Assembly: GCF_056712565.1 (NCBI RefSeq) | Contig: NZ_CM160072.1 | Strand: one strand, 5' to 3' | DNA length: 64,000 nucleotides | Part shown: positions 49,601 to 55,600 of the stretch, one piece after another | Numbering within the stretch: position 1 is the first letter of the stretch | How the letters are laid out: each line of letters starts with the position of its first letter | Position numbers: made by a program

Positions 49601-52600
49601 AATTGTTGCAATGAAGTTACTTGCTTCAATAAGGCTTTGATGCGTCCCTGTATCCAACCATGCATAGCCACGCCCCATCATGGCTACAGACAAACGTCCT
49701 TGTTCCATATAAATACGGTTAATATCGGTAATTTCCAGTTCGCCACGGGCAGAAGGCTTAAGGTTTTTAGCCATTTCCACAACGTCATTGTCATAGAAAT
49801 AAAGCCCAGTAACCGCATAGTTGCTTTTTGGCTCCAGCGGTTTTTCTTCCAGGCTAATTGCCGTACCGTTATTATCAAACTCCACGACACCATAGCGTTC
49901 AGGATCATTAACGTGATAAGCAAATACCGTTGCACCGCTTTCTTTGTTAACAGCAGCTTCCATCAATTTCGGCAAGTCGTGTCCATAGAAGATATTATCG
50001 CCAAGTACGAGTGCACAATCATCACCACCAATAAAGTCTTCGCCAATAATAAACGCTTGCGCCAGGCCATCCGGACTCGGTTGTACTTTATACTGTAGAT
50101 TAAGACCCCACTGGCTCCCGTCCCCCAATAATTGTTGGAAACGCGGTGTATCCTGTGGCGTACTAATAATAAGAATATCGCGAATACCCGCTAACATAAG
50201 CGTTGAAAGCGGATAATAAATCATCGGCTTATCATAAATCGGCAGCAATTGTTTACTCACTGCCATCGTCACAGGATAAAGACGAGTGCCGGAACCACCA
50301 GCCAGAATAATACCTTTACGCGTTTTCATTTCACCATTCCTTTTAATTCATCCCGCTCTGGCATCATGAGCGAGATGCAAAAATTTGTTAAATTGCCGTA
50401 GTCGTAAATAATTCGTTGAGCATACGTTTCACGCCCACCTGCCAGTCAGGCAAGACAAGCGCAAAGTTCTGCTGAAACTTTTCTGTATTGAGGCGAGAGT
50501 TATGGGGTCGACGGGCTGGTGTGGGATAGGCCGTTGTTGGCACGGCGTTAAGTTTGTTAAGTGCAAGATTAATCCCTGCTTTGCGCGCCTCTTCAAAAAC
50601 CAGCGCAGCATAATCGTGCCAGGTTGTTGTGCCACTTGCTACCAGATGGTACAAGCCAGCGACTTCTGGTTTTTTTAATGCCACGCGAATGGCATGAGCG
50701 GTGCAATCAGCCAGCAATTCAGCACCTGTTGGTGCGCCAAACTGATCGTTTATCACAGCCAGTTCTTCGCGTTCTTTTGCCAAACGCAACATCGTTTTAG
50801 CAAAGTTATTTCCTTTACCAGCGTATACCCAGCTGGTACGGAAAATAAGATGCTTTGCGCAATGTTCTTGTAATGCCTTTTCCCCAGCTAATTTTGTTTC
50901 ACCGTAAACATTTAGCGGTGCTGTTGCATCCGTTTCCAGCCATGGCGCGTCACCACTGCCTGGGAAAACATAATCAGTAGAGTAGTGTATAACCCAGGCC
51001 CCGACTTCATTAGCAGCTTTTGCAATCGCTTCGACGCTTGTCGCGTTAAGTAATTGTGCGAAATCCGGTTCTGATTCTGCTTTATCTACTGCAGTGTGAG
51101 CAGCAGCATTAACAATAACGTCAGGACGAATTTTTTTGACGGTTTCTGCCACACCTTCGGGGTTGCTGAAATCTCCACAATAATTAGTGGAGTGAACATC
51201 AAGAGCGATCAGATTACCCAGCGGCGCCAGAGCACGCTGCAGTTCCCAACCCACCTGCCCTGTTTTGCCGAAAAGCAGGATATTCATTACTGACGGCCCT
51301 CATAGTTTTGTTCGATCCATGACTGATAAGCACCGCTTTTCACATTCTCAACCCAATTTGTATTAGCCAGATACCATTCCACCGTTTTGCGAATCCCGCT
51401 CTCAAACGTTTCCTGTGGTTTCCAGCCCAATTCGCGGCTAATTTTATCGGCATCAATTGCATAACGGCGATCATGCCCTGGGCGATCAGCAACATAAGTA
51501 ATTTGCTCACGATAAGATTTCTCTTTCGGTACAATCTCATCCAACAAATCACAAATAGTCAGCACAACATCGATGTTTTTCTTTTCGTTGTGTCCGCCAA
51601 TGTTATAAGTTTCACCCGCTTTACCTTCGGTTACGACGGTATATAACGCACGAGCATGATCCTCTACATACAACCAGTCGCGAATTTGATCCCCTTTGCC
51701 ATAAATAGGTAATGCCTTACCTTCCAGTGCATTAAGAATAACCAATGGAATAAGCTTTTCCGGGAAGTGATACGGACCATAGTTGTTCGAGCAATTAGTC
51801 ACAATGGTCGGTAAACCATACGTACGTTTCCATGCGCGAACCAAATGATCGCTGGAAGCTTTAGAAGCAGAATACGGGCTACTTGGCGCGTAGGCTGTCG
51901 TTTCCGTAAATAGCGGTAACGCTTCGTTATTATTTACTTCATCCGGATGGGGTAAGTCACCATATACTTCATCAGTAGAAATATGATGAAAGCGGAAGTT
52001 TTTTTTCTTTTCATCATCCAGACCAGACCAATAATTGCGCGCAGCTTCTAAAAGTACGTAAGTACCTACAATATTAGTTTCAATGAATGCCGCCGGGCCA
52101 GTTATTGAGCGGTCAACGTGGCTCTCAGCCGCAAGGTGCATCACCGCATCTGGCTGGTGTTGTGAAAAAATACGCGCCATCGCTTCGGCATCGCAGATAT
52201 CTGCATGCTCAAATGAATAACGCTCAGAATCAGAAACTTCAGCGAGCGATTCCAGGTTTCCGGCGTATGTTAATTTATCGACATTAACAACACTATCTTG
52301 CGTATTATTTATTATGTGACGAACAACAGCAGAACCAATAAAGCCTGCGCCACCAGTAACAAGTATCTTCACTTTTTTATTCCATATAGCCAGAGAGCAT
52401 ACTGTGAAATAGACTGCTCGAGATTTGATTAATAGAAGTATTAATGCACGCTACCGCCCCTGGCTTAACAGCTACCAGAGCACTGCGTACATTTCTACGA
52501 TGTGACGAGCGTATCCCGCTCGTGCCAAATCCGAAAAATTCAAACGCTAATTGTCTTACCAAACAGCTGTAGAAACAAGGAAAATCCTGGAAAAATTTGA

Positions 52601-55600
52601 ACTATGATTACAAGCTAACATCCTGTTTTCATTGCATTTATAAAAACAACAACGGCAGTGAGATTCAATGAGCAAAACTTATGCTACGAATCTTCACTGC
52701 CGTTTTTAATTACTTACTGACTGACACTTCCTGTCAGGAATTTGTTACTCGCTTAACAACTTCTCAATGCCTTTGCGGAACTTAGCGCCTTCTTTCAGGT
52801 TGCGTAGTCCATACTTCACAAACGCTTGCATATAACCCATTTTCTTACCACAGTCGTAACTGTCCCCAGTCATCAGCATTGCGTCAACTGCTTGTTTTTT
52901 TGCCAACTCAGCAATGGCATCAGTCAACTGAATACGTCCCCATGCTCCAGGTTGAGTACGCTCCAGTTCAGGCCAAATATCGGCAGAAAGCACATAACGC
53001 CCTACAGCCATGATGTCTGAGTCCAGGGTCTGCGGCTGATCCGGTTTTTCGATAAATTCAACAATGCGGCTGACTTTGCCTTCGCGATCAAGCGGATCTT
53101 TGGTCTGGATGACGGAGTATTCAGAGAGATCGCCCGGCATGCGTTTTGCCAGAACCTGGCTGCGGCCAGTTTCATTGAAGCGCGCAATCATTGCGGCCAG
53201 ATTGTAACGCAGCGGATCGGCACTGGCGTCGTCGATAACAACATCCGGCAGCACCACGACAAACGGGTTATCGCCAATGGCTGGTCTGGCACACAAAATC
53301 GAGTGGCCCAGACCTAAAGGTTCCCCCTGACGCACGTTCATAATGGTCACACCTGGCGGGCAGATAGATTGTACTTCCGCCAGAAGCTGGCGCTTCACGC
53401 GCAGTTCAAGGAGAGATTCTAATTCATAAGATGTATCGAAGTGATTTTCGACTGCGTTCTTGGACGCATGAGTTACCAGGAGGATTTCTTTGATCCCTGC
53501 AGCCACAATCTCGTCAACAATGTACTGAATCATTGGCTTGTCGACGATCGGTAGCATCTCTTTAGGAATCGCCTTAGTTGCAGGCAACATATGCATCCCA
53601 AGACCCGCTACAGGAATAACTGCTTTTAAATTCGTCATTATTTCATCCACCTGTAAAATGGTTGCTGAATTATAGCTTGTTCGATTTTTTTCGCCAGCAT
53701 CAATTCCCCTGAATTGATTACTGATTTACTTCCGATGTTACGCCGCTTTGTTCAGGATTGCAGTAGCGTTATTCCTAAGTATGGCTCTATTTTTCCAGGA
53801 ATGGTCGCAAATCTACCTGCCCCGTTCCGGCAGCTTAAAGTTAATATTTTCCACATTAACGACATGGTGATTAATCCTGTCGATATCGACTGAACTTTGT
53901 CCTTTTTCATTCACCGCATGAACATTTACCAGCGACAGTAGCGTCTCGTTCTTTGCCATAAAGACACCGCGAACGTCCTTTCGCAGGTCGAAATTCATGG
54001 TCAATGCCGGACCCGCAGTGGATTCTTGCATTACTTTGATATTACGCATAAAAATGTGTTGCGGCTTGTTGTGAAGCTCCAGCGAAGCACGCGTCATTTC
54101 AATGTTGGTCAACGCCACGAATGAGACGGCATTCCCTGCTGAAATTTGGATTCCGCGCAATTTCCAGGCAATGTTAGAGTTATCAAGATGAATATTATTC
54201 AATCTGAAGTTTTGTGGTATTGAGAGATACTTATCTTTAATGACTCCGTAACCGATTAACATTCCGGCACTATTGGTCATTTCTATATTGTCAATAACAA
54301 AGTTATCACATCCATATATCGCTACCGTGGCGTTATCAATACCCGCTTTCTTGCTGAAAGCGGGCGTAATATTATGAGCCTTGATATTACGGATGACGAA
54401 GTGTTTGCCGTTCTCAACATGAATCAACTGCCGACAATCCGATCCCGTGATATTCGCCACGACAAAGTTTTTCACTGCCTGATCTTCTGGGTAATTATTA
54501 TCGTAAGTGCTTCCCGCAAGGCCTATGCCAATGCCCCAGTTGATTTTGCCGTTGGTACAGTTGATGCGCTCGATGACATGGTCAGATATCAAAATATCAC
54601 TGTCGTTAATTGCCACGTTCCATTCAATGGCGTCGCCCTGTAAGTCGCTGAACTTACAGTTGGTGACGTTGGCACCGATAATCTGGTTATGAAATCCCTG
54701 GCGTAAGATGGCGTAATTAGCGTGGCTAATGGTCAGGTTATCGATGGTCAGGTTGCGCATGACCCGTTTGTTTTTGCCGCCGATATAAATCTGCGTTACC
54801 GGACCAAAGCCGCTCATCGCCAGCCCTTTGATGGTGCAGTCAGAGCCGCGCACATCCAGGGTGATGTTATGCATACTGCCGCCCACCTCCCCTGTCACCT
54901 GACTGCCGTCCTGTAAGACAAATCGCCCTCTGCCGTTGCCGCGCAGACTTCCAAGGATGTGTAACGTTTTACCTGCAGGAATGAAGATGCCGGTGTTGAT
55001 ATTGTCACAAACCAATCCGGCAGGCACGACGACTGTTTGCCCTTCGCTGAAGGCTTGTTTAAATGAGGCGATCCAGTCGTGTGGATTGTAGTCGTTAATG
55101 TTAACGCTTGTTCGGGCTGGAAGTGCACGAGCGAAAGGGGTATGGAGGAAGGCAAGCGCCGAGCTTGCCGTCAGGAAGGTGCGTCGGGAGAGTTTTTTAA
55201 ATGGCATGCGTTCTCCTCTATAAAGCTTGCAGCAAGCTTGCGAGTTCTCGATTGATCACCTGCTGGTTAAAATCATGTTCGACTTTTTCGCGCGCACGTT
55301 TGATAACCGGAGCCAGTTCGTCGGTGTCCAGTTGGCTAAACGCCGCTAGTCGTTGCGCCAGTGCACGAGCATCGTTCTCAGGCACCAGCCAGCCGGATTT
55401 GTCGGCCTCCACCAGTTCCGGTATTCCGCTATGCAGAGTTGAAACAACCGGAATGCCGACCGCCATTGCTTCCATTAGTGCCACCGGAATACCTTCCATA
55501 TCGCCATCCGCGCCCGTTACCGATGGCAGGAGGAAGACATCCGCGTCGTCGAGGATCGCTTTCACTTCGTGGCTCGGTTTAAAGCCCGGCATCTCTACCA

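Follow-up and report, generated by a model that had tools for sequence, protein, structure and literature searches.

The closest described counterparts of the leader studied here are those of the E. coli K-12 rfb (galF-rfbB) and O7 wb clusters, whose JUMPstart elements are attributed to Hobbs and Reeves (1994), Marolda and Valvano (1998) and Wang et al. (1998) in PMC2864571. Both lie at the same locus, between the same flanking genes and in a 372-nt spacer, and both share with the window (the whole 64-kb stretch of DNA that was analysed) a three-block layout of terminator hairpin, promoter block and JUMPstart. The K-12 ops 12-mer is identical to that of the window and its JUMPstart is one base apart (GTTAAG in the window, GTAAAG in K-12), whereas identity over the rest of the spacer is ~81% and the downstream genes here are of O2/O50 type, not O16 or O7.

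The uropathogenic strain CFT073 (O6) provides a second comparison. RfaH ChIP-seq, sigma-70 ChIP-seq and RNA-seq in this strain show loading at ops and a transcription start upstream of it (PMC9765446). Its O-antigen operon has a 30.6-fold RfaH ChIP peak and a transcription unit that starts 67 nt upstream of ops (PMC9765446, Data set S2). The ops 12-mer of the CFT073 wzx leader is identical to ours and its JUMPstart likewise follows galF; the distance from ops to the first gene is 71 nt to wzx by the paper's count and 74 nt to the rmlB start codon in the window. The sequence past ops is unrelated. The waaQ (rfaQ), wza (colanic acid), hlyCABD and kps elements lie in the 5′ leaders of long, horizontally acquired envelope or virulence operons, all of them RfaH-bound (PMC9765446; PMC6775461). 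They share the 8-nt core with the window and, for the most part, the 12-mer as well, again on the non-template strand, but differ in locus and leader length, with 40 to 634 nt between ops and the first gene, and the hly and kps elements have variant 3′ ends (GCATG, GCATA).

Identity of the element at the head of the O-antigen operon

The first-pass annotation had identified the reverse complement of 52447-52458 as ops, and this is correct to the base. The minus strand reads GGCGGTAGCGTG at these positions, an exact match that conforms to the general 12-nt ops pattern GGCGGTAGnnTG with its core GGCGGTAG and that places the pause base, U11, at position 52448. The same 12-mer is found in the RfaH-bound wzx, rfaQ, wza, tssH and c4518 leaders of CFT073 (PMC9765446). 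In ops mutagenesis C3, G4, G5, T6, A7, G8 and G12 matter, C3-G8 being needed for RfaH binding and G12 for the pause (PMC5995543), and every one of these bases is intact in 52447-52458(−).

A full-length JUMPstart of 39 nt, CAGTGCTCTGGTAGCTGTTAAGCCAGGGGCGGTAGCGTG, occupies 52447-52485(−) and ends at its 3′ side with this 12-mer. Alignment to the 39-bp JUMPstart consensus had been proposed as the check on the ops call; Rfam RF01707, classed as a cis-regulatory RNA, matches over model positions 1-38 of 38 with a score of 61.1 bits, well over its gathering score of 35, and with E = 1.3e-11 for the whole window. Two GGTAGC direct repeats can be read from the sequence, the first at 52471-52476 and the second, inside ops, at 52450-52455.

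At the level of the 8-nt core a chance match to a short consensus is easily obtained, as this core is not rare; shuffled sequences average 1.22 copies per window, and a second GGCGGTAG does occur at 9285-9292(+). The full 12-mer, however, has no second match in the window, even if one mismatch is tolerated (shuffles average 0.11 such matches), and the E-value of the 39-nt model and the retention of the site at the same locus in thousands of genomes speak against coincidence as well, so that we assign this explanation no probability at all. The second core copy was itself rejected as ops, since it is internal to a 301-aa ORF and is followed by TGCA, not CGTG. Intragenic ops-like sites are not bound by RfaH in CFT073 (PMC9765446).

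The element lies between galF and rmlB, upstream of the polysaccharide cluster and in the same orientation. galF (UTP-glucose-1-phosphate uridylyltransferase / GalU regulator) occupies 52745-53650(−) and matches NCBIfam TIGR01105 with 682 bits (cut-off 659); its mechanical ORF begins with GTG at 53650, and an identical RefSeq genome has the start annotated at the position equivalent to 53638. rmlB/rfbB, with a GTG start, occupies 51287-52372(−) and matches the NCBIfam dTDP-glucose 4,6-dehydratase model with 795 bits over positions 1-361 of 361. The operon behind the element, at 41549-52372(−), was delimited from NCBIfam, Pfam, the RefSeq annotation of an identical genome and the composition profile. 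Its 12 genes, all on the minus strand, are in order rmlB, rmlD, rmlA, a sugar 3,4-ketoisomerase (FdtA-like), a hexapeptide acyltransferase, a DegT-family aminotransferase, wzx, a GT4 glycosyltransferase, rmlC, wzy, a GT2 glycosyltransferase and a DUF1972 glycosyltransferase. The rfaH gene itself falls outside the 64-kb window.

The motif is thus on the coding strand of rmlB and of all the genes that follow, which places ops on the non-template strand. The first-pass annotation had taken the motif as confirming the operon orientation and the regulatory entry point, and with 12 co-directional genes behind it this holds. Downstream the GC content drops to 31-38% in the composition profile, which fits the H-NS-bound, RfaH-dependent class of operon (PMC9765446). 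The leader is 100% identical to that of a RefSeq genome carrying O2/O50-family wzx and wzy.

We therefore read the element as the JUMPstart/ops signal of an E. coli O2/O50-type O-antigen (rfb) operon, with a transcription start upstream and RfaH loading at ops, and we put the probability of this reading at about 0.94; none of the results speaks against it. A JUMPstart/ops at the head of an O-antigen operon is real, ordinary and already known, and finding one at the galF-rmlB locus brings nothing new; RfaH-dependent O-antigen expression, a determinant of virulence and serum resistance, is a textbook case. For the present cluster the element fixes the orientation and regulatory entry of the operon and delimits the serotype-specific DNA on its left side.

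What the window itself establishes is the sequence of the element, with its strand, position, conservation and family, and the operon that follows. The steps of the mechanism proposed for this operon, from pausing and hairpin recognition to RfaH loading and antitermination, are those described in the literature for ops elements of the same sequence. Transcription would start at the conserved promoter ~40-100 nt upstream of JUMPstart, past the terminator that would end galF transcription. RNA polymerase reaching ops would pause at U11, and the exposed non-template strand would form a small hairpin in which C3 pairs with G8 and G5 and T6 are presented. Autoinhibited RfaH would read this hairpin and then open, its N-terminal domain occupying the NusG site on the polymerase and its C-terminal domain, once refolded, recruiting a ribosome; the first gene of the operon has a GTG start codon, and its ribosome-binding site is weak. 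The polymerase would thereby resist pausing, Rho and H-NS over ~11 kb of AT-rich genes. Both RfaH loading and pausing at 52447-52458(−), and a dependence of the distal genes on rfaH, are expected by analogy with these systems.

Anatomy of the galF-rmlB spacer

The whole of 52373-52744 had been described in the first-pass annotation as a JUMPstart region within the untranslated leader between galF and rmlB. These limits coincide exactly with the 372-nt spacer from the galF stop to the rmlB GTG, and the position between the two genes is as claimed, but JUMPstart proper accounts for only 39 of the 372 nt. The true leader would be only about the last 150-175 nt; the galF-proximal remainder holds a hairpin that is probably the galF terminator, and a promoter-like block that is invariant among leaders.

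The hairpin at 52651-52704(−) (AACGGCAGTGA...TCACTGCCGTT) is followed by a T-rich tail at 52640-52650, and the two together, at 52640-52704(−), are probably the intrinsic terminator of galF. The RNA fold of 52640-52744(−) has an energy of −37.3 kcal/mol (z = −5.96), with none of 200 shuffled sequences folding as well, and the stem arms are kept in all eight aligned leaders. A simple terminator scan of 52200-52900 did not return this hairpin, as the loop exceeds 8 nt. Weak Rfam matches to mir-23 and mir-627 (E = 0.07-0.34, far under the gathering scores) fall on the same hairpin and were rejected as RNA genes.

The promoter-like block at 52541-52595(−) was recognized from columns that are invariant in the eight leaders, and its invariance extends over clusters that differ in their first gene, among them O111, whose leader is otherwise divergent. 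Within it, an invariant TTGTTT at 52573-52578 is a candidate −35 element and the invariant TTGGTAAGACAATTAG (52547-52562) contains two overlapping candidate −10 hexamers, either GACAAT at 52550-52555, with a 17-nt spacer, or TGG-TAAGAC at 52553-52561, of the extended −10 type. The proposed hexamers are weak matches to consensus (3/6 and 4/6). Since a sigma-70 consensus scan of 52200-52900 returned no minus-strand promoter at its threshold, the hexamers are assigned by inference and the placement of the promoter rests on conservation and on the CFT073 data. In the leader alignment the start of the CFT073 transcription unit maps to window position 52525, upstream of the element, and from this analogy and the conserved block we infer a transcription start near 52545-52525. 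A literature search for a mapped rfbB transcription start found nothing usable. Marolda and Valvano reportedly mapped the O7 promoter in 1998; a leader of 173 nt would place the start at G52545.

Between the promoter and JUMPstart, a hairpin ACGAGCG-GGATA-CGCTCGT at 52505-52523(−) is present in both the MFE and the centroid folds. K-12, CFT073 and O159 retain it in their leaders, where a C-to-T substitution leaves a U.G pair intact, and it is not conserved in the O87, MS14386 and O111 leaders. On the other side of JUMPstart, the distal leader from ops to the rmlB GTG (74 nt, 52373-52446(−)) is cluster-specific in sequence and has no strong Shine-Dalgarno motif, only a GGAA ~10 nt upstream of the GTG. 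The sole ORF that spans the element (61 aa, TTG start, 52377-52562(−)) was rejected as a gene, as were small plus-strand ORFs across the leader, because the sequence past ops is not conserved between leaders.

Conservation of the leader among E. coli clusters

The leader was found in 4,004 of 5,426 complete E. coli genomes; the weakest matches shrink to the JUMPstart core, and JUMPstart is the only part common to all cluster types. In the eight-leader alignment the promoter block and JUMPstart stand out as invariant, the latter at 36 of its 39 positions. Past ops, leader similarity persists only where the first gene is rfbB, and is otherwise lost immediately.

Such a loss of similarity within a few bases of ops when the first gene differs is the pattern of a recombination junction. 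It would suit a block conserved mainly as the left-hand anchor for exchange of O-antigen clusters, not for regulation, with homologous recombination in galF and the spacer maintaining uniformity and similarity stopping at the serotype-specific DNA. However, the same 39-nt element precedes unrelated operons (rfaQ, wza, hly, kps and T6SS) and binds RfaH there, and distant genera show compensatory changes in the JUMPstart stem together with an unchanged ops, which requires selection on function. We consider it very improbable that anchoring is the main reason for conservation. A functional site and the edge of an exchanged segment can be one and the same element, the two being compatible.

The upstream JUMPstart stem

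The JUMPstart stem-loop, at 52460-52478(−), is supported by the Rfam consensus structure, the MFE fold and covariation. It is composed of a 5′ arm CTGGT (52474-52478), a 9-nt loop AGCTGTTAA and a 3′ arm GCCAG (52460-52464), and the first GGTAGC repeat covers part of the 5′ arm and loop. The Rfam model has five pairs and a loop beginning AGCUG, and the window copy is able to pair CUGGU with GCCAG.

Covariation was assessed on elements from a genome scan with an 18-base pattern, which gave 95 distinct matches, ~21 of them without the NAG start. About half of the latter also had no good stem and came mostly from MAGs of unrelated phyla; these were treated as chance matches, of which we estimate that roughly 17 are expected for this pattern in the scanned collection. 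The other NAG-less matches are real-looking elements that are one base out of register. Four NAG-passing sequences were also excluded, three having one G fewer between stem and ops, and hence a shifted register, and one being a probable chance match. Across 71 distinct elements, drawn from many genera of gammaproteobacteria, 95.5% of stem cells are paired, compared with 77.6% in shuffles, and double-sided changes occur in 50 cells, compared with 13.5 in shuffles. This signal collapses when the stem register is slid. The stem uses U.G pairs that are possible solely on the sense strand, and its 3′ end is fixed 12 nt upstream of the ops pause base. The isolated 39-mer folds no better than shuffled sequence (z = −0.02), and support for the stem thus comes from covariation, not thermodynamics. 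The upstream stem is clearly under selection for pairing.

A covarying stem with sense-strand-only U.G pairs, in an element that Rfam files as a cis-regulatory RNA, might suggest that JUMPstart is chiefly a structured RNA in the transcript, either a protein- or ligand-binding leader or a processed sRNA like RirA of the waaQ leader, and not a DNA signal. This we rate lower still than the recombination anchor, since RfaH has been shown by crystallography, cryo-EM and mutagenesis to recognize ops in the non-template DNA, and a minimal ops scaffold suffices for its recruitment (PMC5995543, PMC11001881); the failure of the 39-nt sequence on its own to fold better than shuffles also counts against it. 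An RNA role would supplement, not replace, the DNA mechanism.

The his leader pause is a hairpin-stabilised pause signal, and the 12 nt between the JUMPstart stem and the pause base resemble the spacing of a pause hairpin seated in the RNA exit channel. The stem may act as a nascent-RNA hairpin in or at the exit channel while the polymerase pauses at ops, a tentative reading that we regard as unlikely; such a hairpin could lengthen the pause, block backtracking, or engage the refolded KOW domain of RfaH, NusA or the incoming ribosome. The covariation, the sense-strand-only wobble pairs and the fixed spacing allow this reading but do not demonstrate it. In biochemical terms the ops pause is described as different from pauses of the hairpin-stabilised kind, and it works on stem-less scaffolds (PMC11001881), and the accessible mechanistic literature contained neither a role for the upstream stem nor an experiment tying it to pausing. 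If a hairpin does act in this way, the natural signal would be a two-part device of DNA plus RNA; present structural models are based on minimal ops scaffolds. The stem is the point that retains some value here, and the question is general to JUMPstart, not specific to the window; elements with a covarying stem were found in Enterobacterales, Aeromonas, Shewanella, Vibrio and Idiomarina.

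The JUMPstart element and its genomic setting

The minus strand at 52447-52458 reads GGCGGTAGCGTG, so the ops motif that the first-pass annotation had placed here was borne out to the base. It is the only copy in the 64-kb window even when one mismatch is allowed, where shuffled sequence gave a mean of 0.11 matches. In a whole-window Rfam scan, RF01707 (JUMPstart) matched 52447-52485(-) over its full model length with 61.1 bits (gathering score 35) and E = 1.3e-11. In the Rfam alignment, the ops 12-mer forms the final third of the 39-nt JUMPstart; before it comes a stem of 5 bp, CUGGU/GCCAG, with a loop starting AGCUG. 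The known direct repeat GGTAGC has its upstream copy at 52471-52476 and its second copy within ops, at 52450-52455. The earlier JUMPstart/ops reading is correct; the element is real and already known, and is usable as an annotation anchor, nothing beyond. The 8-nt ops core GGCGGTAG also occurs at 9285-9292(+) within a 301-aa ORF (8628-9533), outside any leader and without the pause half (it continues TGCA, not CGTG), and this second copy is probably meaningless.

The interval 52373-52744 is, as annotated, exactly the 372-nt spacer between two minus-strand ORFs, and NCBIfam identifies these as the expected galF (52745-53650; 682 bits, cut-off 659) and the dTDP-glucose 4,6-dehydratase RmlB/RfbB (51287-52372; 795 bits, full length). 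RmlB is followed by RmlD and RmlA, and the colanic acid cluster proteins WcaM and WcaL lie on the upstream side (NCBIfam). The spacer is 100% identical to its counterpart in E. coli Es_ST80_L1_NDM_10_2017, whose RefSeq gene order is rfbB, rfbD, rfbA, a sugar 3,4-ketoisomerase, an acyltransferase, a DegT-family aminotransferase, an O2/O50-family wzx, a GT4 gene, rfbC, an O2/O50-family wzy, a GT2 gene and a DUF1972 protein, with ISAs1 remnants, an LTA-synthase-family gene and gnd beyond; the ORFs of the window itself received matching assignments from Pfam and NCBIfam. The operon genes are all on the minus strand, with GC down to 31-38% over 41-49 kb; for the serotype-specific part (41000-50000) this 31-38% compares with 43-55% in galF, gnd and the colanic acid genes that flank it, and such low GC is typical for horizontally acquired DNA. 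The window thus runs from his through gnd, the O-antigen cluster and galF to the colanic acid genes of an E. coli chromosome.

Several other features were seen in the window. A histidine operon leader at 25776-25899(+) (RF00514, 131.6 bits, gathering 49) puts the his operon beyond gnd and the O-antigen genes, the arrangement expected in E. coli. An algC RNA motif was matched at 62172-62221(-) (RF02929, 78.2 bits, gathering 33.8); when coordinates are transferred from the identical annotated genome, it falls between cpsB and cpsG, immediately 5' of the colanic acid phosphomannomutase gene. The match to the enterobacterial sRNA STnc240 at 22963-23037(-) (RF02074, 69.3 bits, gathering 55) ends with a terminator-like hairpin and a U-run. 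Between the ketoisomerase and aminotransferase genes, 48572-49039(-) is an uninterrupted 155-aa ORF, with TTG as first possible start, that strongly matches hexapeptide acyltransferases (Pfam Hexapep, 94.9 bits); in the identical RefSeq genome only two partial pseudogene fragments are annotated here, a labelling that may be an annotation artefact and not a real defect.

Spacer anatomy and conservation among E. coli leaders

The spacer was found by megablast in 4,004 of 5,426 complete E. coli genomes, nearly always as a single chromosomal copy, and the weakest matches covered only query ~260-305, the JUMPstart. A chance origin of ops/JUMPstart was excluded by the uniqueness of the 12-mer, the Rfam E-value and this 4,004-genome conservation. 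Alignment of eight leaders, with rfbB, wzx or a glycosyltransferase as first downstream gene, gave three conserved blocks: a terminator hairpin, long and directly after galF; a promoter-like block, TTTTCCAGGATTTTCCTTGTTTC ... TTGGTAAGACAATTAG; and the JUMPstart, with 36 of its 39 positions invariant. Together with the T-rich tail that follows it, the 52651-52704 hairpin (-37.3 kcal/mol, z = -5.96 by RNA folding) is most plausibly the galF terminator. A small perfect hairpin at 52721-52737 (either strand; CTGACAGGAAGTGTCAG on the minus strand) sits right behind the galF stop and 5' of the main terminator hairpin, and is not conserved in K-12-type leaders.

The promoter-like block lies 60-110 nt upstream of JUMPstart, and within it TTGTTT (52573-52578) and the 16-mer 52547-52562 are invariant, the divergent O111 leader included. 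Candidate hexamers would be TTGTTT and GACAAT with a 17-nt spacer, or an extended -10, TGG-TAAGAC, both being weak matches; a simple consensus promoter scan returned nothing on the minus strand of the spacer region. Marolda and Valvano (1998) reportedly found a 173-nt leader in the O7 cluster, which would set the start at G52545, compatible with either hexamer, and we give this no evidential weight. Independent published evidence comes from the homologous leader of CFT073, a uropathogenic O6 strain, where RNA-seq predicts that the O-antigen transcription unit begins 67 nt before ops (PMC9765446, Data set S2A; counted from the first base of ops). Leader alignment transfers this start to 52525. 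By either the CFT073 or the O7 estimate, transcription would start upstream of JUMPstart (52485), and the leader would therefore comprise only ~150-175 nt of the 372-nt spacer. The earlier claim that the motif lies in an untranslated galF-rmlB leader would hold for the position of the element, given the estimated upstream start, but not for the spacer as a whole. Another hairpin, smaller than the terminator (52505-52523), would fall between the estimated start and JUMPstart. The rmlB start is a GTG, 74 nt past ops, with no strong Shine-Dalgarno sequence, which fits the reported dependence of RfaH-controlled operons on ribosome recruitment by RfaH (PMC6358824, PMC11001881).

Past ops in the 3' direction, similarity is kept only among rfbB-first clusters and is otherwise gone within a few bases. 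Purely recombinational conservation of the block would fit this abrupt loss, but the same element stands before unrelated operons.

Covariation of the JUMPstart stem across genera

Within E. coli the Rfam-modelled stem is invariant and hence uninformative. One genome per species was scanned with AGCTG-N(8,9)-GGGCGGTAGCGTG, in which loop start and ops are fixed and both arms are free. At least 120 stretches matched, and the matches listed include Escherichia, Enterobacter, Citrobacter, Serratia, Yersinia, Pantoea, Tatumella, Hafnia, Aeromonas, Shewanella, Vibrio, Idiomarina and other genera; those listed from unrelated phyla look like chance. JUMPstart positions 1-3 are NAG in 74 of 95 distinct sequences among the matches listed, a filter that leaves the stem untouched. 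Seventy of the 74 were aligned with the window copy, leaving out one that is probably a chance match and three whose register is shifted by one base.

In these 71 sequences, among the matches listed, 95.5% of stem cells are in standard pairs (77.6 ± 1.4% when shuffled; 0/500 shuffles are as high), changes on both sides occur in 50 cells (13.5 ± 2.7 in shuffles), and four of the five stem pairs show compensatory changes. For the same matches, column 12:22 holds U.G 51, A-U 10 and G-C 10, column 9:25 holds U-A 52, A-U 9, G.U 5 and G-C 2, and sliding the 3' arm by 1-3 columns lowers pairing to 22-61%. Since the frequent U.G and G.U pairs would turn into mismatches if read from the opposite strand, the structure belongs to the sense strand, as RNA or non-template DNA. 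The distance from the stem 3' end to the pause base is fixed at 12 nt. A stem that covaries in other genera, like the unrelated operons, cannot be explained by recombination alone.

The covarying stem matches the stem-loop described at the definition of the Rfam JUMPstart family (PMC2864571), and so is not new. The mechanistic literature consulted used minimal ops scaffolds, calls the ops pause distinct from hairpin-stabilised pauses (PMC11001881) and assigns the stem no role; that the stem acts as a nascent-RNA hairpin at the ops pause is a possible but rather unlikely reading.

Two Aeromonas contigs carry paired JUMPstart/ops copies in the same orientation, at 13506-13531 and 13684-13709 in L039 (~180 nt apart) and at 983-1008 and 1395-1420 in L065 (~410 nt apart). 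Each pair would give a single leader two loading sites in tandem, whereas one ops per transcription unit is reported for E. coli.

Probable RfaH loading at the window ops

For the mechanism we rely on the literature on ops sites of identical sequence. Within ops, RNAP pauses at two bases, C9 and U11, and the paused complexes recruit RfaH via the exposed non-template strand, in which a small hairpin closed by C3:G8 presents G5 and T6 for reading; G4C, G5A, A7T and G8C abolish recruitment, C3G and T6A lower it about three-fold, and G12C removes the U11 pause (PMC5995543). In cryo-EM the pause is pre-translocated and swivelled, and the ops DNA hairpin stabilises it; RfaH then opens, its KOW domain refolds and a hyper-stabilised pause ensues, which may allow time for ribosome loading (PMC11001881). 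An element acting purely at the RNA level would conflict with these structures, which show recognition of non-template DNA (PMC5995543, PMC11001881). In CFT073, the RfaH ChIP signal at the O-antigen leader begins at ops, peaks at 30.6-fold and continues through the operon; when rfaH is missing, polymerase occupancy collapses over the operon's length. Every RfaH target in that strain is H-NS-bound (PMC9765446).

All the required bases are present in the window ops, which is on the correct strand and leads into the type of AT-rich operon expected; on these grounds, with a probability of roughly 94%, it would work as published ops sites do. Polymerase would pause here, and RfaH would load from the non-template strand and stay on through the operon.

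Decayed ISAs1/ISEc1 transposase remnants at ~38939-41370(-), with an internal stop and a frameshift according to the annotation of the identical RefSeq genome, lie between the last O-antigen glycosyltransferase and the sulfatase/LTA-synthase-family gene (37242-38870), just ahead of gnd, in a stretch that could be read by RfaH-modified polymerase.
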